Program-made: the position numbers and the translations under genes | From: Patescibacteria group bacterium | GTDB taxonomy: Bacteria > Patescibacteriota > Microgenomatia > UBA10105 > UBA927 | Assembly (NCBI GenBank): GCA_035510735.1 | Contig: DATKGN010000002.1 | Coordinates: 125,118-189,117, forward strand | Direction of reading: 5' to 3' | Length of the DNA stretch: 64,000 nucleotides | The notes under the pieces: generated by a model | Told to the model about the DNA's origin: nothing | The model's database searches: none | The model's input: the letters and a program-made list of their open reading frames with translations, nothing else | Shown here: in pieces, positions 1,668 through 60,028 of the stretch | Numbering within the stretch: the stretch's first letter is position 1 | Layout: the number at the start of each line of letters is the position of its first letter

Positions 1668-3809
1668 CTACTGCCACGAGGTCACTTTGTATAAACGAAA
1701 ACCCTGCAATGAATCCTCAGCTATGAGCTGAGCGCCTTTTGACGCTTTTTCCCACAATATGTGGTAGACATAATAAAACCGGGTATCGTAGGCGTTAAAC
1801 TCACTCTGGTTTATAAAAAAACAAAACGGCAGTTTGGGTTTCAGGGTGTCAATCTGTTCCGTCGATACGATATACCCCCGAACATATGCATATTGCGTCG
1901 CGGGCGCCACACCCAAAGCCGCGAGTAAATCAAACTCGTACGCATCAACACTCAATAGCGGACAACCGGACGGCAAGTGTTTTACTAAAAACTGATATTC
2001 GGGCAGGTCTTTTGTATTCCAATGATTTATCGAAGATTGTATAAATGCCGAAGACTCTTTTCCGATAGACGCGGCCGCAACTCCATACGGAATCATCATA
2101 AGCGTGCCGCGAAGCGCGCCCAGAACAATGATAAATAAACACAAAAACGTTCCGACCACGAGTACATAATCTTTTTTGACCGATGAACGGTTTTTCCAGG
2201 CTAAATCAACAAGTAATCCGGCCACAATAATAAACGGCATACTCACGCCATAGAGCGTGTGCGGCATGCTCCTCCCCATGTAATACGGAAATGATGTCAA
2301 CTGAATGACGGCGATATAGACGCACGCAATACCCAGTACATCCCGTTTCTTGAGAACGGCATACATACCGGCGATAACGCCCACCAGACTCACGAATAGT
2401 GGGAATATATAGGCGATATCGCCTCCAATGGGGACAAGGTAAACACCGCCTCCGAAAAAGCGTGCAAAATACGTGTACATACCGATATCCGGCAACCGAC
2501 CGGATTTAAAAAGCGTATAGGCGGATACTGCAGCGAAACTGCAAAGCACTGTCCCTCCGATTGGCACGATTACCGATCGCACGAAAAATGCTGGCTGTTT
2601 TTTTGCTACCGCACGAAGCAGCAATAGTGCCAACGCAGCAACGAAAAGCCCCGCGCCGATCTCCACCGAAAAAAATAACCCAAGCGTACTTGCGATAAGG
2701 AACAACGTAAAATAGAGTTCTTTTTTTGACTGGATAAACAACATCAACAACCCGAGAGGGATTAAACAAGCGCCGAAACGAAGGGGTGTAAATGCCGGGT
2801 GGCCTACGAGCGCAATTTTATATCCCGGAAACCCCCAGTACCGTATGAGGATCGTATAAAAAAATACGGCAATGGTCGTACTGAGTGCGAGAAGCCGGCT
2901 CGCGAATAATTTATAAAGGATGACAGTCAAGAGTCCGAAATAGACCACAAGAAATATCATGGTCGCGACAAGGCTCATCTCATACGAAACCGGAAGCTTG
3001 GGAAAAGCGAGAATCCACAAAATCCAGGGGATGAGATACCCATAGCCATATTGACTGTACACATCGATAAACGGAATACCTCCGTGCGCTATGTGGTAGG
3101 CCGATCCGAAGGTGATAAACATATCCCATGCGTCTTCGTACAGAAGCATAAACCGGAGAAGCGCCAGGGATATGAGTGATAGTACAACGACCAGCGGCAC
3201 CCACCTGGGTATTCGACTCACCCACCTCACTACATTCCTGTGTTGCCGTGTCAACCCGTAAAGAATTATGCCGATTGCGCATACGGCGATAAGATAAAAG
3301 TATTGTGTGTATATCGCAGGATCTGCACCGATATCAAAAAAGATCCCACTGGGTAAAAGATATTTCAACAGGGTGCCGCCCATAATAATACCAATAAATG
3401 ATTGCGGTATATCGCGTTTTAAAACATACGATCGCACGGCCCAAATACCTACAACCAAAAATCCCAACGGCACGATATTGAAAACAACATGCGTCATATT
3501 GATTGACGGGTAACAAAGAGCATATAACGTACAGGCGACCGCGGATATACGGGCTAGCGAGATAAACTTTTTATGCTGACGGAATCGGATGAATAACACA
3601 GAGAGGAGCGCCGAGCTCAAAAAAAATAGACCCACAAATGCGATGTAAACAATGTTATCGATTTCATGAGTAAAAATATCCAGAGGATTGAGCAAATGAA
3701 TGGATCCGACCGGGATGCGCCAGAAAAACGGAAATAATGCCCGAATGACCCATGAGGCAATAACTCCCGAAAAAATAGCTGCATAATACATCCACTCAAC
3801 AGGAAACAT
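1668..3809 (-). CDS. large polytopic integral membrane protein (713 aa), GT-C-like architecture (possible glycosyl/lipid transferase)
   Basis: More than 12 predicted TM helices in the N-terminal ~560 aa followed by a ~150 aa soluble C-terminal domain; the function is inferred from architecture only. Confidence 0.55.
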   Translation of the reverse strand: MFPVEWMYYAAIFSGVIASWVIRALFPFFWRIPVGSIHLLNPLDIFTHEIDNIVYIAFVGLFFLSSALLSVLFIRFRQHKKFISLARISAVACTLYALCYPSINMTHVVFNIVPLGFLVVGIWAVRSYVLKRDIPQSFIGIIMGGTLLKYLLPSGIFFDIGADPAIYTQYFYLIAVCAIGIILYGLTRQHRNVVRWVSRIPRWVPLVVVLSLISLALLRFMLLYEDAWDMFITFGSAYHIAHGGIPFIDVYSQYGYGYLIPWILWILAFPKLPVSYEMSLVATMIFLVVYFGLLTVILYKLFASRLLALSTTIAVFFYTILIRYWGFPGYKIALVGHPAFTPLRFGACLIPLGLLMLFIQSKKELYFTLFLIASTLGLFFSVEIGAGLFVAALALLLLRAVAKKQPAFFVRSVIVPIGGTVLCSFAAVSAYTLFKSGRLPDIGMYTYFARFFGGGVYLVPIGGDIAYIFPLFVSLVGVIAGMYAVLKKRDVLGIACVYIAVIQLTSFPYYMGRSMPHTLYGVSMPFIIVAGLLVDLAWKNRSSVKKDYVLVVGTFLCLFIIVLGALRGTLMMIPYGVAAASIGKESSAFIQSSINHWNTKDLPEYQFLVKHLPSGCPLLSVDAYEFDLLAALGVAPATQYAYVRGYIVSTEQIDTLKPKLPFCFFINQSEFNAYDTRFYYVYHILWEKASKGAQLIAEDSLQGFRLYKVTSWQ

Positions 3810-3842
3810 AGATTAGAGTATACCGTATCATCCATTCGTGTA

Positions 3843-3900
3843 AACAGTTGTAAGATTTCTTACAATTGTCCTTGACAGGAAGCTGTACATTTGTTTATAT
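3843..3900 (+). promoter_or_regulatory. sigma70-like promoter preceded by an operator-like palindrome
   Basis: The near-perfect inverted repeat ACAGTTGTAAGAtTTCTTACAATTGT (3843-3868) abuts TTGACA (3872-3877), then a 17-18 nt spacer and a TATATG -10-like hexamer; lies upstream of 3907/4127. Confidence 0.45.
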
Positions 3901-3906
3901 GTCTCT

Positions 3907-4128
3907 ATGATAACGGCGCTTGTTATTCTTTATCTATTCCTTTTTCTCTCGCCCGCTCTCTCACAGGCGCACGCGTATCTGGACCCCGGCAACGGCAGTT
4001 ATATGATCCAATTACTTTTCGGCGGAGCCCTTGGCCTTATTGTCAGCGTTAAATTATTCTGGAAACAAATACACCATTTTTTTTCCCGACTCTTTCATAA
4101 AAAAACAGATGACAAAAACGAGGGTTAA
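3907..4128 (+). CDS. small membrane/secreted protein (73 aa), uncertain
   Basis: Hydrophobic N-terminus (signal-like) plus a second hydrophobic segment; it lies downstream of a TTGACA-17-TATATG-like promoter; it could alternatively be the leader of the next gene. Confidence 0.3.
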   Translation: MITALVILYLFLFLSPALSQAHAYLDPGNGSYMIQLLFGGALGLIVSVKLFWKQIHHFFSRLFHKKTDDKNEG

Positions 4129-5503
4129 CGTGCCAACAACCCGGCTTGGCAGCTCATTCCGCGACCCGAGCGGTCATGTCATTGCCGATAAGGGAATCCT
4201 GAAGCGGACCATTTCCGCGTCTTATATACCAATATACCGGAAGGCCGAAGGATCAGGATTATATGACCGGCTGATGAAGGATGCGTTATTAATCCCCCAC
4301 CGGGAACTCCCGCGCAATAATAGAAAAAATAATCTTGTCATTCAACCTGACGTCATCCCATTCATCTCTTATCCATATGAGTGGTGTTTTGGTGAGCTTC
4401 ATGACGCAGCGCTCACGACGCTCAACATCCAAAAGACCGCCCTCGCATACGGTTTTTCCCTTAAAGACGCGAGTGCGTATAATATCCAGTTCTATAACGG
4501 AAAACCGATTCTTATTGACACGCTGTCGTTTGAGCCGTATGTAGCGGGCTCGCCATGGATTGCATACCGCCAGTTCTGTATGCATTTTCTTATGCCTTTA
4601 CTTCTTATGAGCCGAAAATCCGCAGATTTCAACAAATTATTCATCACGCACCTTGACGGTATACCGCTATCGCTTGGCAGCTCACTATTGCCCAAAACGA
4701 CACTATTGAACCCGTCGCTTCTTGCACACATCCATCTGCACGCCATGATGGAACAAAAACTCGCGGGGAACACAGCACGACACGGCAACAATACACTGTC
4801 CAAAGATGCGTTTGTAACACTTCTTAACAATCTCGAGTCAACCATCAGGCATTTGAAATTACGGGATTCACAAAGCCAGTGGAGCTCATATGAAGAAACG
4901 CATTCATATGGCGTGGGCGGCATGAGGGAGAAAAAGAAAATTGTAACGACACTGCTGCGGAAAATTCATGCGGAATCTGCGCTCGACATCGGTGCAAATA
5001 CCGGTGCATTTACCGCACTTTGTATAGCGGGCGGGATAAATACAATCGCCGTTGATAATGACCACGGGTGCATTGAAAAACTGTATGCCGCAAACAAACG
5101 CAATAACGTAACCAATTGCCTCCCCCTTTGCATCGATATCACGAATCCGAGTCCTTCAATCGGATGGGAGAATAACGAACGGTCATCATTTCTGGATAGG
5201 ACAGACGTTGATCTCGTCCTGGCGCTCGCGCTTATTCATCATATCGCGATTGGCAATAATGTGCCGTTTGATTATATCGCCCGTCTCATGAGCCGACTCG
5301 GCCGCTATCTCATCATAGAATTCGTACCGAAAACCGATATCATGGTCCGACAGATGCTCGCCAATCGCGTTGATGTTTTCACGAACTACACAAAAAAACT
5401 GTTTGAACGGGAATTTAGCGTATATTTCCGAGTGCTGGGTACTTTTCCGGTCTTGAACACCGGGAGAGTCATCTATCTCATGGAGCGAAAACGAGGCGTA
5501 TGA
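4127..5503 (+). CDS. class I SAM-dependent methyltransferase with an N-terminal uncharacterised domain (RLGSSFRDPSGHV)
   Basis: Glycine-rich SAM-binding motif LDIGANTGAFT...AVDND in the C-terminal half; the ORF track starts at 4031, but that extension overlaps the small ORF, and the start at 4127 (MTKTRVNV) is preferred. Confidence 0.6.
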   Translation, partial: NVPTTRLGSSFRDPSGHVIADKGILKRTISASYIPIYRKAEGSGLYDRLMKDALLIPHRELPRNNRKNNLVIQPDVIPFISYPYEWCFGELHDAALTTLNIQKTALAYGFSLKDASAYNIQFYNGKPILIDTLSFEPYVAGSPWIAYRQFCMHFLMPLLLMSRKSADFNKLFITHLDGIPLSLGSSLLPKTTLLNPSLLAHIHLHAMMEQKLAGNTARHGNNTLSKDAFVTLLNNLESTIRHLKLRDSQSQWSSYEETHSYGVGGMREKKKIVTTLLRKIHAESALDIGANTGAFTALCIAGGINTIAVDNDHGCIEKLYAANKRNNVTNCLPLCIDITNPSPSIGWENNERSSFLDRTDVDLVLALALIHHIAIGNNVPFDYIARLMSRLGRYLIIEFVPKTDIMVRQMLANRVDVFTNYTKKLFEREFSVYFRVLGTFPVLNTGRVIYLMERKRGV

Positions 5504-11535: not shown

Positions 11536-12027
11536 TTACAACTCAAGAGTCTTATAGGTAAACCGAATCCCCACTTCTTCGTGGAACTCATCAAAAAGAA
11601 CTTTTTTAAACCGTGAAAAATCGGGGAAAAACGTGTCAGCTCCCGGAGCCTCGGCGTCAACGATGGTGAGGTATAAACGATCTGCTTTACCTATCACCTG
11701 CGCGTAGATCTGCCCTCCGCCGATGACAAAGATTTCTTCGCTTCCCGGGGATTTATTTGCTACGTCAATAGCTTCATCAAAAGAATGAACGATAACGAAT
11801 CCTTCCTTCTGATAGGTCACATCATGGGTGATGACAATATTTGTCCGACCGGGAAGCGGGGCGCCACCTTTGTATTGGAACGTGGCATGGGTTTTCCTGC
11901 CCATGATAACGGGGTGGCCCCAGGTCAGTTTCTTAAATCTCGGAAGATCGCCGGGGATGTGCCACAGGAGCTCGTTCTTTTCCCCTAATTCTCTATTCTT
12001 TCCTATGACCGCAATAATGGATAACAT
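11536..12027 (-). CDS. folA: dihydrofolate reductase
   Basis: MLSIIAVIGKNRELGEKNELLWHIPGDLPRFKKLTWGHPVIMGRKT classic DHFR N-terminus; 163 aa. Confidence 0.9.
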   Translation of the reverse strand: MLSIIAVIGKNRELGEKNELLWHIPGDLPRFKKLTWGHPVIMGRKTHATFQYKGGAPLPGRTNIVITHDVTYQKEGFVIVHSFDEAIDVANKSPGSEEIFVIGGGQIYAQVIGKADRLYLTIVDAEAPGADTFFPDFSRFKKVLFDEFHEEVGIRFTYKTLEL

Positions 12028-12035
12028 ACCAAAGT

Positions 12036-12119
12036 TGTCATTGCGAGACCGTTCTTACGGCAAAGCAATCTCTCAAAAAATGAGATCGCCACGTCTCGAA
12101 GACTCGACTCGCGATGACA
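12036..12119. repeat. nested palindromic intergenic repeat, copy A (TGTCATTGCGAG...CTCGCGATGACA)
   Basis: 84 bp element between the thyA stop and the folA start; an 11-bp outer inverted repeat plus inner hairpins (ccgttcttacgg; gcaatctct/agagat); homologous to the copies at 48554 and 49533. Confidence 0.7.
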
Positions 12120-12124
12120 AAAAA

Positions 12125-13132
12125 CTAAAACCCACCAACAACAGTTATGTCACCTTTAATCGGCGGGTGCGGATCGTAGCCGACAAGCTCAAAATCCTCG
12201 AATTTGAAATCATCAATATTCTTCACCTTCGGATTGATTTTCATCGTCGGGAATGGCCGCGGAGTCCGTGACAGCTGCTCTTTACACTGATCAAAATGAT
12301 TTTCGTAGATGTGGACATCGCCGAACACATGGACGAAATCACCGGGTTTATAGCCCGTGACCTGCGCAAGCATCATGGTTAAGAGTGCGTATGACGCAAT
12401 ATTAAACGGCACTCCCAGGAAAAGATCCGCACTCCGTTGGTAAAGGAGTAAGGACAACCGGTCGCCGGTGATGTTGATGTGGTACATCGTGTGACACGGT
12501 GCAATGACCATAGAGGCGCTATGGCTCCCGCTCATCTCATAGATACATCCCGCATTCCACGCGGAGATCACATAGTGCTTTTTCATCGGGTACTTTTTTA
12601 TCTTTTCGATCGCCCAACCGAGCTGATCGACCGTACGCGTCCGAAAACCGGGCTTGCCCGCCGAAGCTTCAGCGTAGGTGGGCCACTTGCGCCACTGGAC
12701 GCCGTACACAGGCCCCAACTCTCCCCATTTCTTCAGGAACTTCGGATCGCTTTGGGCATTTTGCATAAATGTCTCAAACGGCATGGGCTTTGCTTTTTTT
12801 CCTGCCTGCGCAGGCAGGTCTTTCACCGCCCATTCGTACTTTTTGTACGCCCACTCGTCCCAAATGTGCACATTGTTGTCGACGAGATATTTGATATTGC
12901 TTGAACCCGAGAGAAACCAGATGAGCTCGTGGATAATACCGCGGGTAAAAACCTTTTTGGTCGTAAGAACCGGGAGGCCTTTTGAAAGGTCATAGCGGCA
13001 CATGCGGCCGAAGACGCTTTTGAGCTTTACGCCGGTCGAGTGGCTTATTTTCCATTTTCCGTTGTCCATGATGTCTTGCATGAGATCAAGATATTGGTAT
13101 TCGGGATGGGTGTGATTGGTTTTTGTAGACAT
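12125..13132 (-). CDS. thyA: thymidylate synthase (ThyA, long form)
   Basis: PCHTMYHINITGDRLSLLLYQRSADLFLGVPFNIASYALLTMMLAQVTGY active-site region; 335 aa. Confidence 0.95.
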   Translation of the reverse strand: MSTKTNHTHPEYQYLDLMQDIMDNGKWKISHSTGVKLKSVFGRMCRYDLSKGLPVLTTKKVFTRGIIHELIWFLSGSSNIKYLVDNNVHIWDEWAYKKYEWAVKDLPAQAGKKAKPMPFETFMQNAQSDPKFLKKWGELGPVYGVQWRKWPTYAEASAGKPGFRTRTVDQLGWAIEKIKKYPMKKHYVISAWNAGCIYEMSGSHSASMVIAPCHTMYHINITGDRLSLLLYQRSADLFLGVPFNIASYALLTMMLAQVTGYKPGDFVHVFGDVHIYENHFDQCKEQLSRTPRPFPTMKINPKVKNIDDFKFEDFELVGYDPHPPIKGDITVVGGF

Positions 13133-27516: not shown

Positions 27517-28032
27517 CTATTTCCACTGAAATATCGCGCCGAGGAGCGTCATCATCGGTGAAACGTTCCACCACTGGAACGACGGCGTGGTTGCAGGCTG
27601 TGGCGGCATGTACGTTGGCGTTGCGGTAACCGTTACCATTGCAGTCGGTGTCGCTGTCGGCGTAGTTATTTCGGTCGGCGCTGGGGTAAGCGTTACCGTC
27701 CCCACCTTCGCTGAAGCTTCGGTGGGTAAAGGCGTTGGCGTATAGGTTGCAATCGGCGCGTAGGCCGCAGGCGGTAGGATATATCGGGTGGGTGGAACGG
27801 TGACAACCGGCGCCTGTGTAGTAACGGTATTATTCGTGCTTCCGCCGCACATGACCATGGAAGCATACGAGCAGGATGAACCGGTCCAGCCGTCATTGCA
27901 GATCACATTGCCATTCCCCTGCGGCCCCACACCACAATTGACGCCGCTATGACCCGAACAACAGCCACTGGTTGCAAAAACAATTGAAGGAAAAAGTAAG
28001 AAAAGTGCGGGCAGGAGGAATATTTTTTTCAT
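27517..28032 (-). CDS. secreted Cys-rich protein with a Thr/Pro-rich linker
   Basis: Signal peptide MKKIFLLPALFLLFPSIVFA, then 10 Cys in ~45 aa (CCSGHSGVNCG...), a TP-rich low-complexity region and a short hydrophobic C-terminus. Confidence 0.6.
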   Translation of the reverse strand: MKKIFLLPALFLLFPSIVFATSGCCSGHSGVNCGVGPQGNGNVICNDGWTGSSCSYASMVMCGGSTNNTVTTQAPVVTVPPTRYILPPAAYAPIATYTPTPLPTEASAKVGTVTLTPAPTEITTPTATPTAMVTVTATPTYMPPQPATTPSFQWWNVSPMMTLLGAIFQWK

Positions 28033-37895: not shown

Positions 37896-38561
37896 TTAAT
37901 ATTCCGTACGGCCTTCAAGCGCACGGCGCAGCGTCACTTCATCGGCATATTCAATGTCTGCTCCGACCGGAAGCCCGTGGGCTAGGCGCGTCACTTTAAT
38001 TTTATGGTTATTATTGTTACTTGTTACTTTGTTAATTTGTTTATGTATGTACATTGCCGTTGCCTCCCCCTCCATATTGGGGTTCATGGCTAAGATAACC
38101 TCGGCAACTTTTGATGAATCTGCGGCCACCCGCTTTACCAAATCCTCAATATAGATCTCATCCGGACCGATATTATTTAAAGGATCTATGGCGCCGTGAA
38201 GCACGTGATAGACACCGTTAAAGTGCCCGGTCCGTTCAATGGAGAGGACATCACTCGGACTCTCGACGACACAAATAATCGTATGATCGCGCGACGGATT
38301 ATCGCAGATGATGCACGGATCCTGTTCGGCAACGTTCTTACAAATGCCGCAGAGAATCGTATCTTTTTTTAGGCCCGATAAACTTTTGGCGAATAAGTCG
38401 AGGTCTTCCTGCGGAACGTGAAGAAGATAAAACGCAAGCCGCTGGGCGGTTTTTGGTCCTACGCCCGGCAGACGCTCAAACGACTCAATAACCCGCGAAA
38501 CCGCTTTCGGAAGAATTGCCATCTTGTTATTTGTCATCGCGAATCCCGATACGATCGGCAT
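37896..38561 (-). CDS. recR: recombination protein RecR
   Basis: HhH LPGVGPKTAQRLAFYLL, C4 zinc finger CGICKNV...CIICDN, Toprim domain. Confidence 0.9.
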   Translation of the reverse strand: MPIVSGFAMTNNKMAILPKAVSRVIESFERLPGVGPKTAQRLAFYLLHVPQEDLDLFAKSLSGLKKDTILCGICKNVAEQDPCIICDNPSRDHTIICVVESPSDVLSIERTGHFNGVYHVLHGAIDPLNNIGPDEIYIEDLVKRVAADSSKVAEVILAMNPNMEGEATAMYIHKQINKVTSNNNNHKIKVTRLAHGLPVGADIEYADEVTLRRALEGRTEY

Positions 38562-38636
38562 GTGGCGATCTCATATAAATATTGTGTTTGGATTGCTTCG
38601 CCGTGTGAACGGTCTCGCAATGACAATATAGTAATT

Positions 38637-39551
38637 TTACCTTACCAGCGTTGAAATTGCATTGGCGATCAAAGGAGCGATAGAGACCGTATGCAACTTA
38701 TCGAATTTTTTGTCCCCGATGATATCAATCGAGTTGGTGACGATGATTTTATCAATCGGCGCATGGGACAACTTTTCAACCGCTTCACCGGCTAGTACGC
38801 CGTGAGTAGCAAGCGCGATCACACTTGTCGCCCCCGCCTGCCGGAGAGACTCAGCCGCCTGTACCGTTGTACCGCCCGTTGAAATAATATCATCGATAAT
38901 GATCGCTGTTTTATCATTGACGTCGCCTATGATCTGATAGGTTTCGCTCGTATCATGCTTATCCAGGAATCTCCGCTTTTCCATAACGACCATTGGAAGA
39001 TCAAGCGCATAGGCCAAATTGCGGGCACGCTTGACTCCGCCGACATCGGGTGAGATCACAACGCCGTTTTGAATGTTCATCTTCTTGATCTCGTCCGCTA
39101 ATACCTGAAGGGCAGAAATATGCATAACAGGGATCTGGAAAAATCCCACAATGGCATCATTATGAAGATCGACGCAGATAATCTCATCAAACATGCTGAC
39201 TTCCAAGAATTTCGCAATCACGCGCGCGGAGACCGGCTCGCCCAACCGATGGAGCTTATCCTGACGGGAATATCCCATATACGGGATAACGGCAATGACG
39301 GCCCGGGGCGCACAACGGCGGATCGCGTCTCCCATAAGGACCATCTCCATAATGTGCTCATCCATGGGGAAGGAAAAAGACTCAAGAACGATAACTGTTT
39401 TATCCCGTATATCATCCTGAATCCACGGCCGGAGCTCGCCATCCGCAAACCGCGTTAAGTCAACGTGACCAAGCGTTATATGGAGGGATTTTGCGACTTC
39501 ATGCGCAAGAGGTAAATTACTGGAACCGGCATACAAAATAAAGTCTTTCAT
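38637..39551 (-). CDS. prs: ribose-phosphate pyrophosphokinase
   Basis: 304 aa, PRPP-binding IIDDIISTGGT, DLHNDAIVGFF. Confidence 0.9.
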   Translation of the reverse strand: MKDFILYAGSSNLPLAHEVAKSLHITLGHVDLTRFADGELRPWIQDDIRDKTVIVLESFSFPMDEHIMEMVLMGDAIRRCAPRAVIAVIPYMGYSRQDKLHRLGEPVSARVIAKFLEVSMFDEIICVDLHNDAIVGFFQIPVMHISALQVLADEIKKMNIQNGVVISPDVGGVKRARNLAYALDLPMVVMEKRRFLDKHDTSETYQIIGDVNDKTAIIIDDIISTGGTTVQAAESLRQAGATSVIALATHGVLAGEAVEKLSHAPIDKIIVTNSIDIIGDKKFDKLHTVSIAPLIANAISTLVR

Positions 39552-46988: not shown

Positions 46989-47112
46989 ATAACCCCTTTC
47001 TTTTTAAATCCAAAATCCAAATTTCTAAATCCAAAATACTATCAAATGTCTCAAATTTCAATTTTCAAAACATTTTGAATTTATTTTGATTTTTGGATTT
47101 TGTGCTTAAATA

Positions 47113-48543
47113 TTACTTTTTACCTAATACTACATCCACCTTCACCTTTTCCCCGAATAATTTATTCAGAACGTTCCCTATCACTTCCCTGGTCTTCACT
47201 TCCGATAATTTATCCTTATGAAATGTATAAAACGCCTCGATAGTCACTATACCACCTGCGACGGACTTCGGTCTAGTGGAACGCATTACGCCTGCGACCG
47301 AATGATTAAACGGCTTAAGTTCCGCTATCACATCGCCCCAATGGTCCGTGAGCTTCTCAAGCGTGAGCAATCCCGTGGACTCTTCACCTGCCGGTTGTAC
47401 CGCAACGCGTACACTCTTCTCTATAGTCGGCGCGATGCCAACAGTTGACCCGAAAGTTTTGAAAGAAACAGAGTCAGTCACCCCTTCATTTTTTGATACA
47501 GTCCCGGTTTGTCTCTTTTCCATGTCGCAATATTCGACGACCGCAAGTTCAAGAGGAAGCTCAGAAATCGGCGCCCCTTTTATCTCCGTATATGCCTGTG
47601 AAAGTTTGTGAATGATCTGCGTCAAATCTTCCCGCGTCCAGCCGCCGGGCGAGCTCCCCCGAACTTGTGCAATAAGAGTTTTTTCAAGCGAAGACAGGCA
47701 ATCAACGACAAACATCTTGATATCTTTCCCTTCTTTTGCCAACTGTTGTATAACCACAAGCGATTCTGTTGTTTTTTTTGCGCGAAGAGACGTAAGGAAT
47801 AATTCTTTTATTTTCTCCTCACTTAAGGCAAGTATTGACCGGACTACTTCGGCATTGATTTTCCCCTTATGAAAACTCACCTGTTCGAGATATTTAACCG
47901 CATCCCGGAATGCTCCGTCGACACTGCTCGCGATGATCGTCAACGCTTCATCATCAATCTGAATTTTTTCCTTCACTACAATTCGTTTGAGCGCGTTGGT
48001 AAGCTCTTCAGTTGATGCTTTCGAAAAAACGAAAGAAACACAGCGTGATTTTATCGTCACCGGTACTTTCTGGGAATCGGTCGTTGCGAGCACAAATACG
48101 GCGTGGGCGGGCGGCTCCTCAAGCGTTTTAAGAAGCGCATTAAACGCTTCAGTCGTCAACATGTGTACTTCGTCGATAATGTAAATTTTATACGCGCCTG
48201 AGGACGGCGTCAGATTAATTCCGTCGCGAAGCGTTCTCATTTCATCAATCCCTCGGTTACTTGCAGCATCGATCTCAAGAATATCCAAATCCCGGCCCTC
48301 AGAGATGGAAACGCATGCCTCACACAAACCGCAGGGGCCCGACTTCGTGGGTTTCTGGCAATTAAATAATTTTGCTATAATCCGTGCGGCCGTTGTTTTT
48401 CCGGCGCCTCTGGGGCCACTGAAAAGAAACGCGTGAGGCAGATCTTTTTTGGGTTTTTCAAGAAGCCGAAGGAGGGCGTCCCGCACGGAAACATTATCGA
48501 TTTCATCGATAACCTGCGGACGATAAATACGATAGAACGACAT
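47113..48543 (-). CDS. dnaX: DNA polymerase III subunit gamma/tau
   Basis: GPRGAGKTTAARIIAK Walker A, CGLCEAC zinc module, DEVHML. Confidence 0.9.
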   Translation of the reverse strand: MSFYRIYRPQVIDEIDNVSVRDALLRLLEKPKKDLPHAFLFSGPRGAGKTTAARIIAKLFNCQKPTKSGPCGLCEACVSISEGRDLDILEIDAASNRGIDEMRTLRDGINLTPSSGAYKIYIIDEVHMLTTEAFNALLKTLEEPPAHAVFVLATTDSQKVPVTIKSRCVSFVFSKASTEELTNALKRIVVKEKIQIDDEALTIIASSVDGAFRDAVKYLEQVSFHKGKINAEVVRSILALSEEKIKELFLTSLRAKKTTESLVVIQQLAKEGKDIKMFVVDCLSSLEKTLIAQVRGSSPGGWTREDLTQIIHKLSQAYTEIKGAPISELPLELAVVEYCDMEKRQTGTVSKNEGVTDSVSFKTFGSTVGIAPTIEKSVRVAVQPAGEESTGLLTLEKLTDHWGDVIAELKPFNHSVAGVMRSTRPKSVAGGIVTIEAFYTFHKDKLSEVKTREVIGNVLNKLFGEKVKVDVVLGKK

Positions 48544-48553
48544 AATATTGTTG

Positions 48554-48637
48554 TGTCATTGCGAGTCCGTTCAAACGGCGAAGCAATCTTTTTTGTTAAA
48601 GATTGCCGCGCCTCGAAGACTCGGCTCGCAATGACAA
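48554..48637. repeat. nested palindromic intergenic repeat, copy B
   Basis: TGTCATTGCGAGTCCGTTCAAACGGCGAAGCAATCTTTTTTGTTAAAGATTGC...CTCGCAATGACA between the ybeY stop and the dnaX start; collinear with copy A. Confidence 0.7.
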
Positions 48638-48645
48638 GTGCATTT

Positions 48646-49050
48646 TCATTCCGGGTGGTGTATCCCCAATAAATGATTTAACCCGTGAAGCACCAAAAAT
48701 ACGATCTGATCATCGACCATTTTATTTTCCTCGGCGGCTTCAGAAACCGCCTGGGGAAATGAAACAATGATATCACCGAGCCGGAGTACGCCATCTGGAG
48801 TCTCAACAAATTGTGTCTCAGGTTTATCGCTCGGATCGTTGAGGGGAAATGAAAGCACATCAGTGGTGTCGTCGATATTTCTATACTGTTTATTAAGTCC
48901 GTGCATGCGACGGTCGCCGACGATGGTGACGCTAACCTCGGCCGGACCCTTTATTTTGCCCCCCAACTCGATGATGATGGAATCGATCACTTTTTTCCGG
49001 TCCACCGGAAAATGGGATTCTGTCTGGAATAACACGGTAATCATAAACAA
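48646..49050 (-). CDS. ybeY: rRNA maturation endoribonuclease YbeY
   Basis: HGLNHLLGIHH metal-binding motif; TTG start in the ORF track. Confidence 0.85.
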   Translation of the reverse strand: MFMITVLFQTESHFPVDRKKVIDSIIIELGGKIKGPAEVSVTIVGDRRMHGLNKQYRNIDDTTDVLSFPLNDPSDKPETQFVETPDGVLRLGDIIVSFPQAVSEAAEENKMVDDQIVFLVLHGLNHLLGIHHPE

Positions 49051-49073
49051 TTGAACAATACAACAATCCGGGA

Positions 49074-49538
49074 TTATTTGGAAGAGAGTAATTGCGTGAG
49101 CATCGCCGAAACCCGCCCGCCGTCCGCTTTGCCTTTGAGTTCACCCATTGCCATTTTCATAAGGAGTCCGAAATTCTTCTCCCCGCTTGCCGCAATAGGC
49201 GTAAGGATAGTCCTAAGTTCATCGTCTGACATCTCCTTCGGAGCAAATTCAGAAAGGATGGTGAGTTCATCCTTTTCTTTTTTGACAAGCTCCGCTCGGC
49301 CCGCATTCCCAAAAGCAGTGATGGATTCGTTATGCGCCTTTATTTGTTTTTTAACTCCGTCCGCGATATCTGCTTCCGTCAGCGACGTTTCCCATGCTGC
49401 TCCGTATTTGGCAATCGCAGCGTTGCGAATGGCGGCCATGAGCATCCGGAGCGTGCTCACCCGTTCAGCTTTCCCAGCCTTAAGGGAACTATTGAGATCC
49501 GCCTGTAGTTGAGCAATCGTCATATCTTTTCTTGTCAT
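49074..49538 (-). CDS. yqeY: GatB/YqeY domain protein
   Basis: 154 aa, characteristic all-helical sequence. Confidence 0.75.
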   Translation of the reverse strand: MTRKDMTIAQLQADLNSSLKAGKAERVSTLRMLMAAIRNAAIAKYGAAWETSLTEADIADGVKKQIKAHNESITAFGNAGRAELVKKEKDELTILSEFAPKEMSDDELRTILTPIAASGEKNFGLLMKMAMGELKGKADGGRVSAMLTQLLSSK

Positions 49539-49631
49539 TGCGAGGATCCCGAGCGTAGTCGAGGGAGACGCGGCAGTCCCATAAATTATTTAGAGATTGC
49601 TTCATCTCGCACACTCGATTCGCAATGACAA
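49533..49631. repeat. nested palindromic intergenic repeat, copy C (diverged)
   Basis: TGTCATTGCGAGG...CTCGATTCGCAATGACAA; its 5' arm overlaps the yqeY start codon (ATGACA); lies between the rpsU stop and yqeY. Confidence 0.65.
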
Positions 49632-49636
49632 CTGGG

Positions 49637-49825
49637 CTATCCTCTGTTTGGATGTCGAAGTCTGCGCGCTAGTTCGCGTTTTTTCTCCTTACGGACTTCC
49701 GCTGGCTTCTGATAAAATTCACGTTTCTTGAGATCCTGTAAAATTCCCTCGGCGAGAACTTTGCGGGTAAATTTTCGGATCAATGAATCGGATGAATCTC
49801 CTGGTTGTGCTTTAACAAATACCAT
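49637..49825 (-). CDS. rpsU: 30S ribosomal protein S21
   Basis: KAQPGDSSDSLIRKFTRKV... basic C-terminus; start chosen at ATG (MVFVKA) rather than the upstream GTG. Confidence 0.8.
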   Translation of the reverse strand: MVFVKAQPGDSSDSLIRKFTRKVLAEGILQDLKKREFYQKPAEVRKEKKRELARRLRHPNRG

Positions 49826-49842
49826 AAAAACAAACACCCCCT

Positions 49843-58772: not shown

Positions 58773-59702
58773 TTATTTCCCCGCTTTCTTTGTGACTCCT
58801 GGTTTAGCCAACTCGGGTGCCGCTTCCTTTTTTACTTCAACTTTGGCTGCGGCGGCTTTCTTCGCCATTTTCTCTGCCTCGCGTTTTTGCTCTTCTTTTA
58901 ATGACAACACTTTTTTAGCATCTTCATCCTGTTTTTTCTTTGCTTCTTCAGCTTTTACTCTGAGCTCCTCATTTTTTACTTGTTCTTCTTCCTTCCGCCT
59001 GTTAAGAATATCTTTGCCTTCCTGATACGCTGTGGCTATGTAATGAACGATATAGGTAACCGAACCGACCGCATCATCGTTTGCAGGAATGACGTAATCA
59101 ATTCCTGTCGGATCTGAATTGGTATCAACGACACCGACAACCGGAACTACACGCCGCTGTGCTTCACGAACAGCAGCAATTTCTTTACGAGTGTCTACGA
59201 CAAATAATACTGCTGGCACCTGCATGAGGTGAAGTACTCCGCCATAATATATTTTTATCCTACTTAAATACCGTGCCATCTTCGTTTGTTCGTGCTTGGG
59301 AAATTTTTTCCACGCGCCTGTTGCCTGTTCATCGGTCATCCGGTTAATTTTCTCAATATTTTTCCGGATCTGGTCCCAATTCGTTAAAAATCCGCCGATC
59401 CATCGTTCGGAAAAATATGGCGCACCGACTGCTTCGGCTTCCTGTTGCAAAATTCCCCGTGCCTGGCGCTTCGTCCCGACAAACAATACCTCACCCCCGC
59501 CTGCTACCACGGATTTAATATGTTCTCCCGCCGCCTCAAGACCTGCTTTGGTTTTGGCTAAATCAATAATGTGGATTCCGTCTTTCTCGGTATAAATAAA
59601 TTGGGACGCTTTCGGGTGCCAACGCTCAGATTTGTGGCCAAAATGACAACCCGCTTCAAGTAATGCCTGTAGTGTAATTTCTTGCATAATTATATTTGTC
59701 AT
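58773..59702 (-). CDS. rpsB: 30S ribosomal protein S2 with a K/E-rich C-terminal extension
   Basis: Conserved S2 core (HFGHKSERWHPK...), ~70-aa lysine/glutamate-rich tail. Confidence 0.9.
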   Translation of the reverse strand: MTNIIMQEITLQALLEAGCHFGHKSERWHPKASQFIYTEKDGIHIIDLAKTKAGLEAAGEHIKSVVAGGGEVLFVGTKRQARGILQQEAEAVGAPYFSERWIGGFLTNWDQIRKNIEKINRMTDEQATGAWKKFPKHEQTKMARYLSRIKIYYGGVLHLMQVPAVLFVVDTRKEIAAVREAQRRVVPVVGVVDTNSDPTGIDYVIPANDDAVGSVTYIVHYIATAYQEGKDILNRRKEEEQVKNEELRVKAEEAKKKQDEDAKKVLSLKEEQKREAEKMAKKAAAAKVEVKKEAAPELAKPGVTKKAGK

Positions 59703-60028
59703 TCCCGCGTAGGCGGGAATCTCCTCGCTATCCTCCTTCGCTCAAATTCGTCTTGTGGTTTACATCCACACATCCGAATGTTCGCTTCGGCGGATTGATC
59801 ATATCTAAACTCTCCCTCGACAAACTCGGGATCGTTAAGCTATGAATCAAAAAAAGCACCGATACGCCGGTGCTTAAACCTTCTTGCGTATCTCTTTAAA
59901 CAAACACTCAATTGCCCTTCGACTCAGCCGGAGGGAAGAGATAGCTTATTGAGTGCGATAATGAACGTATTATACGGTCAAATCAAATTATTTGCAATAC
60001 AGTACATAGTACGGTATTGTAAGCTCAT

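Follow-up and report, generated by a model that had tools for sequence, protein, structure and literature searches.

The palindromic repeats between minus-strand genes in the window (the whole 64,000-nt stretch of Patescibacteria DNA analysed here) are lineage-specific insertions of DNA that form a divergent branch of an already described repeat family and are not a new RNA regulator. With a probability of roughly 0.7, we read them as gene-less inverted doublets of arms of the Ssn-related motif (SRM)/CGTC-tagged REP type, which would be the non-autonomous form of an ssn-plus-arms unit and would have spread through single-stranded DNA.

Measured from the TTGTCA tag to TGACAA, the window doublets are 82-100 bp in size. 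Doublet A (12035..12120, + orientation) lies between thyA (12125-13132) and dfrA (11536-12027), with arms at 12037-12070 (+) and 12084-12118 (-), the right arm being an ATCGC/GCGAT variant. Doublet B (48554..48637, +) lies between ybeY (48646-49050) and dnaX (47113-48543), with arms at 48555-48588 (+) and 48601-48635 (-). Doublet C (49532..49631, +) separates rpsU (49637-49837) from yqeY (49074-49523) and is the most decayed copy, with a left arm at 49534-49580 that has lost its inner block and a right arm at 49595-49629 (-). The original prediction had placed three copies at these positions, and all three were recovered there; a fourth, doublet D (38531..38626, -), is inverted relative to A, B and C and occupies the gap between prs (38637-39551) and recR (37896-38522), with arms at 38591-38624 (-) and 38533-38570 (+). 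All genes flanking the four doublets are on the minus strand, the first-named of each pair being upstream, and the location described for the first three copies, short gaps between minus-strand genes, also holds for D. Each window copy lies 4-10 nt from the upstream stop codon and 9-11 nt from the downstream start codon.

The exact 10-mer TCATTGCGAG occurs 5 times in the window against about 0.1 expected, and in the shuffled-sequence control proposed with the original prediction, the paired pattern GTCATTGCGA-N50-80-TCGCRATGAC was found at 4 loci in the real window and at 0 in 100 dinucleotide shuffles. By repeat scan and BLAST of the copies against the window, A and B are nearly collinear as had been claimed, at 89% identity in the left-hand 36 nt and 92% in the right-hand 25 nt, and D matches both of them at 91-94% identity along the left arm (~35 nt). 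The terminal and inner blocks reported as common to B and C are indeed present in C and are all that it has in common with the other copies, its left inner block having decayed to GCAGTC; the ccgttcaaacgg hairpin, also reported as common, is absent from C.

We then compared the orthologous junctions in syntenic relatives with conserved gene order. All four sites are empty in the more distant of these, where stop and start codons are 0-13 nt apart or overlap: site A is a TAATG overlap in contigs L294 and L295, site B is 1-2 nt long in L209 and L211, site C is 0 nt (adjacent genes) in L209 and 4 nt in the closest relative there, L208, and site D is 11-13 nt in L291 and L292. Since the sites are empty in relatives, the doublets are lineage-specific insertions of DNA into gene junctions. 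The closest relatives (85-88% amino acid identity) carry palindromes of other kinds at three of the four junctions. At site A, L293 (87%) has a canonical-SRM doublet, TGTCATTCTCGCGCTGGCGAGAATCC...GATTCCCGATTGAGGTCGGGAATGACAA (L293 922-1004); at site D, L290 (88%) has a different canonical-SRM doublet (L290 2912-3000); and at site B, L207 and L208 have an unrelated AT-rich palindrome. The L290 and L293 doublets are heterodimers of canonical SRM arms and occupy the very positions at which GTCATTGCGAG-type doublets stand in the window. Because other palindromes sit at the same junctions in the closest relatives, the junctions appear to have been hit repeatedly or turned over in place, and the canonical doublets at A and D point to in-place turnover or a shared insertion hotspot. 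Most likely, the window doublets are passengers that split gene pairs formerly overlapping or coupled, and any effect that they have as mRNA hairpins would be a side effect. The nearest named relatives of the window RecR belong to Candidatus Gottesmanbacteria (73-75% identity). Same-strain contigs from five samples carry copy D, and contig L122 begins within copy B; the repeat breaks metagenome assemblies.

Each arm has the form 5'-(T/C)GTC, ATYGC, a loop of 17-25 nt with its own mini-hairpin, GCRAT, C(T/C)-3', and a doublet consists of two facing arms with their GTC tags outward and a spacer of 6-25 nt between them. The consensus of a doublet reads GTCATTGCGAG, variable hairpin, GAAGCAATCC, variable spacer, GGATTGCTTC, variable hairpin, CTCGCAATGAC. 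The outer-block ATTGC can pair with the inner-block GCAAT of the same arm, and in the variant arm ATCGC pairs with GCGAT. We found that GTCAY followed by a stem of at least 5 bp and then C fits 7 of the 8 window arms, and that sites of this form number 13 in the window against 2.0 expected. Among 305 distinct oriented copies, a right outer block GCGAT is accompanied by ATCGC in the inner block of the same arm in 36/38 copies, and GCAAT by ATTGC in 265/267. The inner block of the opposite arm stays GCAATC in 38/38 of the GCGAT cases, the outer block of that arm being fixed as ATTGC by the search pattern. The GCGAT/ATCGC double change within one arm thus leaves the arm hairpin intact and gives the long hairpin of the whole doublet a wobble or mismatch; this covariation within arms could go back to a very small number of ancestral events.

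This architecture resembles repeats associated with Ssn, a family of GIY-YIG nucleases (cd10448; Chenal et al. 2025, Nat Commun 16:2388, PMC11893778). The Neisseria repeat NTS is CGTCATTCCCGCGMAVGCGGGAATCYRG, and the wider class is termed SRM. According to the main text of that paper, Ssn binds the hairpin as single-stranded DNA only and on the forward strand only, cuts a few nt upstream of it, and does not bind RNA; the most important positions are the C that follows the palindrome and the three nucleotides preceding it, and the loop is not critical and may be changed or extended. The same text likens the NTS-ssnA-NTS arrangement to an insertion sequence and offers transposition by Ssn as a hypothesis only (PMC11893778). 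Similar to NTS and other SRMs, the window arms have a (C/T)GTCAT tag followed by a palindrome running from AT to AAT and then C, and the family reaches high copy number at mostly intergenic sites. TGTCAT is present in all eight window arms, in agreement with the HGTCWY tag, and the palindrome is followed by C in 7 of them, the isolated-arm fold being recovered but weak. However, none of the eight arms matches the published SRM search motif HGTCWYN(0-2)YYVSBRHN(0-5)WNVSBRGN(0-2)RNCYNB, because their stem is short (5 bp, ATTGC/GCAAT) and their loop long (17-25 nt with a mini-hairpin). An NTS control and a single canonical NTS-like hairpin of the same superfamily, TGTCATTCCCGCGTAGGCGGGAATCTCC, located immediately upstream of rpsB (59697..59724, +), do match; this singlet is the sole match to the published motif in the window (0.23 expected) and folds as DNA at -8.9 kcal/mol (z -4.7). 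The published motif therefore misses a whole branch of the Ssn/SRM system, which is here extended to Patescibacteria, a group unmentioned in the main text of PMC11893778. Gene-less doublets as units, empty sites and in-frame genic copies are described here and were not found in that text; the filled and empty orthologous sites and the in-frame genic insertions bear on the mobility of Ssn-flanked repeats.

The doublets also resemble the CGTC/TGTC-tagged REPs (Di Nocera 2013, BMC Genomics 14:522, PMC3733652), which have 8-9 bp stems and 4-5 nt loops, occur mostly as inverted dimers, take in dRS3 and Rickettsia RPE-4 and RPE-6, include intragenic copies and have no associated transposase. Shared features are the CGTC/TGTC tag, AT at the start of the stem, a short tail, a predominance of inverted dimers whose halves may fold singly or together into one large stem-loop, structured spacers, and in-frame copies within ORFs, which in the REPs add 20-30 residues (PMC3733652). 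In contrast, the stem and loop here are 5 bp and 17-25 nt, an Ssn-type gene can lie inside the dimer, and the ATTGC-type arm falls outside the four CGTC-tagged REP families, the string ATTGC occurring 0 times in the text of PMC3733652. A comparison with REPIN/RAYT (Bertels & Rainey 2011; Nunvar 2010) is likewise partial. In both systems the inverted hairpin doublet is the non-autonomous unit that is dispersed, the same repeats stand on either side of a single small nuclease gene, no target duplication is made, and recognition of a hairpin in single-stranded DNA is presumed. The doublets lack the GTAG tag and Y1 HUH transposase gene of REPIN/RAYT, the tag here being (C/T)GTC and the nuclease GIY-YIG, and, unlike for REPIN/RAYT, the mobility of the ssn-plus-arms unit is unproven.

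We found that the spacer of the doublet can hold a gene. In contigs L229, L233, L234, L241, L248, L249, L261 and L264, it is replaced by a 93-98 aa GIY-YIG ORF, and in L258 a GIY-YIG gene in the shell adjoins a gene-less doublet; in these nine related contigs, as with NTS, the repeats flank a single-domain gene of about 95 aa on both sides, an arrangement that does not occur in the window. The ORF may take either orientation relative to the CCGTTC-type arm, starts 3-5 nt from one inner block and has its stop codon TGA fused to the other, the ssn-plus-arms unit measuring 365-400 bp in all. The shell-borne protein consists of the GIY-YIG domain alone and is 49% identical (E 1e-30) to an NTS-flanked N. 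gonorrhoeae homologue; among solved structures, UPF0213 1zg2 was its sole match, with a weak E-value of 0.02. By sequence, the gene is probably a cd10448-type ssn. Palindromic repeats were close to the GIY-YIG gene in all six cultured bacteria that we examined (Planktothrix, Rhizobium, Neisseria, Azospirillum, Novosphingobium and Spirosoma): a single perfect inverted pair spans the gene in Rhizobium and Novosphingobium, an NTS/dRS3 array surrounds it in Neisseria, and repeat doublets stand on one or both sides of it in Azospirillum, Spirosoma and Planktothrix, the Azospirillum gene sitting between sufB and sufC. GTC-tagged hairpin arms were present in 5 of the 6, the Planktothrix repeat having no GTC tag.

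No ssn homologue was found within the 64-kb window, nor on plasmid pSA1 of Novosphingobium resinovorum despite at least 40 doublets in this one replicon. Among the viral contigs that the repeat patterns brought up, none had ssn in a GTCATTGCGAG-type shell at gene-sized spacing; such spacings were adjacent copies, one helix-turn-helix (HTH) cargo, or chance matches. The HTH cargo lies in viral contig L270 (6116-6502), where a doublet shell encloses, in the place of ssn, a small ORF that looks HTH-like by eye, and the spacer can thus hold cargo other than ssn.

By analogy with characterised members of the family, the doublets would most likely have been mobilised by an Ssn nuclease. The doublets would be the non-autonomous form of the ssn-plus-arms unit and would spread, or once have spread, by a single-stranded-DNA route. 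In this scheme a nuclease of the Ssn type, with its gene somewhere else in the genome, would bind the arm hairpin and make a nick a few nt to the 5' side of the GTC tag; the inverted arrangement of the arms would give each strand one cleavable arm at its 5' end. We infer the route because Ssn from Neisseria and Wolbachia behaves in this way in the experiments of PMC11893778. A bolder reading, which we put forward only tentatively, is that ssn with its two inverted arms forms an autonomous mobile element that works on single-stranded DNA by a mechanism of a new class, the GIY-YIG equivalent of RAYT/REPIN; its gene-less doublets would colonise the stop/start junctions and even the reading frames of essential genes in minimal CPR genomes, with arm types replaced in place at fixed junctions, as at A and D.

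The family is widespread. Its end-pair pattern matches at least 120 viral contigs, a canonical copy matches plasmids of Novosphingobium, Methylosinus, Methylocystis and Methylobacterium, and a metagenome scan with the left arm from the window returned 57 loci. As a negative control, no paired element was found in 1.15 Mb of dnaX neighbourhoods from many phyla (relatives with at most 51% dnaX identity). Position -1 is C or T in 95-100% of 169 sites, as in the published HGTCWY, and position -2 is weakly conserved. At 13 co-directional junctions, orientation relative to transcription was 7:6, showing no bias, with 1-12 nt from stop codon to element and mostly 5-11 nt from element to start codon. 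About 15 of 39 distinct sites of the window sub-family in sister contigs lie in frame within long ORFs, and Pfam confirms five such hosts (GatB, LepA, RadA, ArgRS and DUF2298), in which the domain is interrupted by ~25-31 residues. In-frame genic loci include L226, L222, L245, L236, L246, L215 and L228, with LepA and RadA hit at the same position in two contigs each; the resulting peptides, such as VIARSEATRQS...IASPSERSRND, recall the behaviour of Rickettsia palindromic elements. The spurious peptides 'VIASEAKQS / LLRFARND / CFASLAMT' come from this very common, mostly unannotated palindrome, which is here connected with the Ssn/SRM system, itself defined only recently. Literature searches with the repeat DNA strings or the spurious peptide strings, and on MITE/CPR, nested palindromes, COG2827 or 'GIY-YIG transposon', returned nothing relevant.

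The original prediction also offered that the repeats might be miniature mobile elements, and the four empty sites, the very wide family and the GIY-YIG gene in the same shell elsewhere support this alternative. Its classical form, MITEs that are deletion derivatives of DDE insertion sequences mobilised in trans via 11-13 bp terminal inverted repeats, would suit the terminal inverted repeats TTGTCATTGCGAG / CTCGCAATGACAA, the small size, the many copies and the polymorphic sites, but is in our view highly improbable. The flanking target-site duplication by which MITEs are recognised was absent: duplications of any length from 2 to 8 nt were at or below chance at 169 distinct sites (122 + 47). 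The only coding cargo that we found in the shell is the 93-98 aa GIY-YIG gene and one HTH-like ORF, and no transposase was found. Copy pairs 1-2 kb apart in viral contigs enclose phage portal, terminase and capsid genes, which rules out a transposase between them.

The folding check proposed with the original prediction showed that all four elements fold strongly as single strands: as RNA, on either strand, energies were -28 to -46 kcal/mol (z -2.2 to -8), and copy B folded as DNA gave -27 to -28 kcal/mol (z about -7). The long hairpin of the whole element is far more stable than isolated arms, which as DNA fold weakly (-2 to -6.5 kcal/mol, z +1.1 to -2.1), a result that we counted against the Ssn-arm reading. 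Strong folds on the mRNA strand are what a functional RNA would be expected to offer, and it had been proposed that the elements, transcribed within operons, act as processing sites, attenuators or stabilisers; as stem-loops they might be RNase III or other processing sites, barriers to 3' exonucleases, or translation decouplers. The placement of every window copy just past a stop codon and just before a start codon would agree with such a role, as would the palindromes of another sequence type that the closest relative has at 3/4 junctions, as if a hairpin were wanted there. Apart from the folding energy, however, we found nothing that positively supports the proposal. No Rfam family was matched by the window or canonical copies at either gathering or E-value thresholds, and no terminator-like site (GC hairpin followed by a U tract) was found at the elements on the coding strand. 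The random orientation and the in-frame copies within ORFs speak against an RNA function, as do the more distant relatives, which manage with gaps of 0-13 nt. Furthermore, compensatory change is intra-arm, preserving the arm hairpin and degrading the long hairpin, and Ssn does not bind RNA (main text of PMC11893778). We therefore consider a functional RNA quite unlikely.

Another explanation, compatible with an origin by transposition, is that the doublets are domesticated host sites, that is, Ssn cleavage tags that restrict or trim incoming or replicative single-stranded DNA and are kept for that role and not as selfish DNA. NTS and SsnA have an in vivo role in transformation in N. meningitidis (PMC11893778), and each doublet has arms in both orientations, so that either strand would, by analogy, be cleavable. 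Against this, the four housekeeping junctions are scattered with no clustering by gene class in the window, copy C is decaying, and the in-frame copies in essential genes look tolerated and not chosen. We regard domestication as unlikely, and inserted gene-less doublets remain our preferred reading.

The original prediction further held that the 5' arm of copy C supplies the yqeY start codon, and this was not borne out. Homologues of YqeY are 146-151 aa long with a conserved start, MT[IV]AQLQ, so the in-frame tag ATG is not the ancestral yqeY start; an empty-site relative reads TAATTTTATGACCGTT at this position, and its ATG is still present in the window, 15 nt downstream from the one in the tag. 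For recR and rpsB, too, the tag ATG was rejected as the real start on the grounds of homologue length and empty sites. Because the tag reads ATGACA in frame, gene calls run into the repeat: recR is over-extended to 221 aa instead of 208 aa (38523-38561 in the window), and yqeY to 154 aa instead of 149 aa (49524-49538); the loci concerned also include L121-L125 and P0001. The rpsB hairpin (59697-59724) has the same geometry, its tag ATG being in frame with, and five codons ahead of, the conserved start of rpsB (about 59687). An ATG-containing tag thus leads gene callers to over-extend the starts of downstream genes. The distance from the GAC end of the arm to the downstream start codon is a constant 9-11 nt at all five start-adjacent tagged ends. 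Filled intergenic sites also have 13-19 nt of extra non-repeat sequence that is absent from empty sites; flank transduction as its source received no support from the LepA genic insertion, as judged against E. coli LepA.

Other palindromes occur nearby. ThyA (12125-13132, -) has two in-frame palindromic inserts that are absent from the 319-aa ThyA of relatives: a perfect 18-nt palindrome, CCTGCCTGCGCAGGCAGG, at 12801-12818, which adds DLPAQA, and the motif CCCACCTACGCTGAAGCTTCGGCGGGCAA at 12654-12682, which adds about 10 aa (YAEASAGKPG). The motif CCCACCTACGCTGAAGCTTCGGCGGGCAA recurs inverted and in frame at 27701-27729 within ORF 27517-28032, and a similar palindrome with the same CCTGCC / GGCAGG half-sites is found in the doublet spacers of L218, L238, L250 and L266. 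The ybaB/dnaX gap (46989-47112) contains an AT-rich palindrome of ~108 nt from another family, relatives having 10-11 nt there, and the AT-rich palindromic insert at the ybeY/dnaX junction of the 85% relative L207 spans 3163-3282. In the Gottesmanbacteria contig L295, whose thyA/dfrA junction is empty, a Y1_Tnp (IS200/RAYT-like) gene (3731-4387) is located 1.2 kb from that junction.
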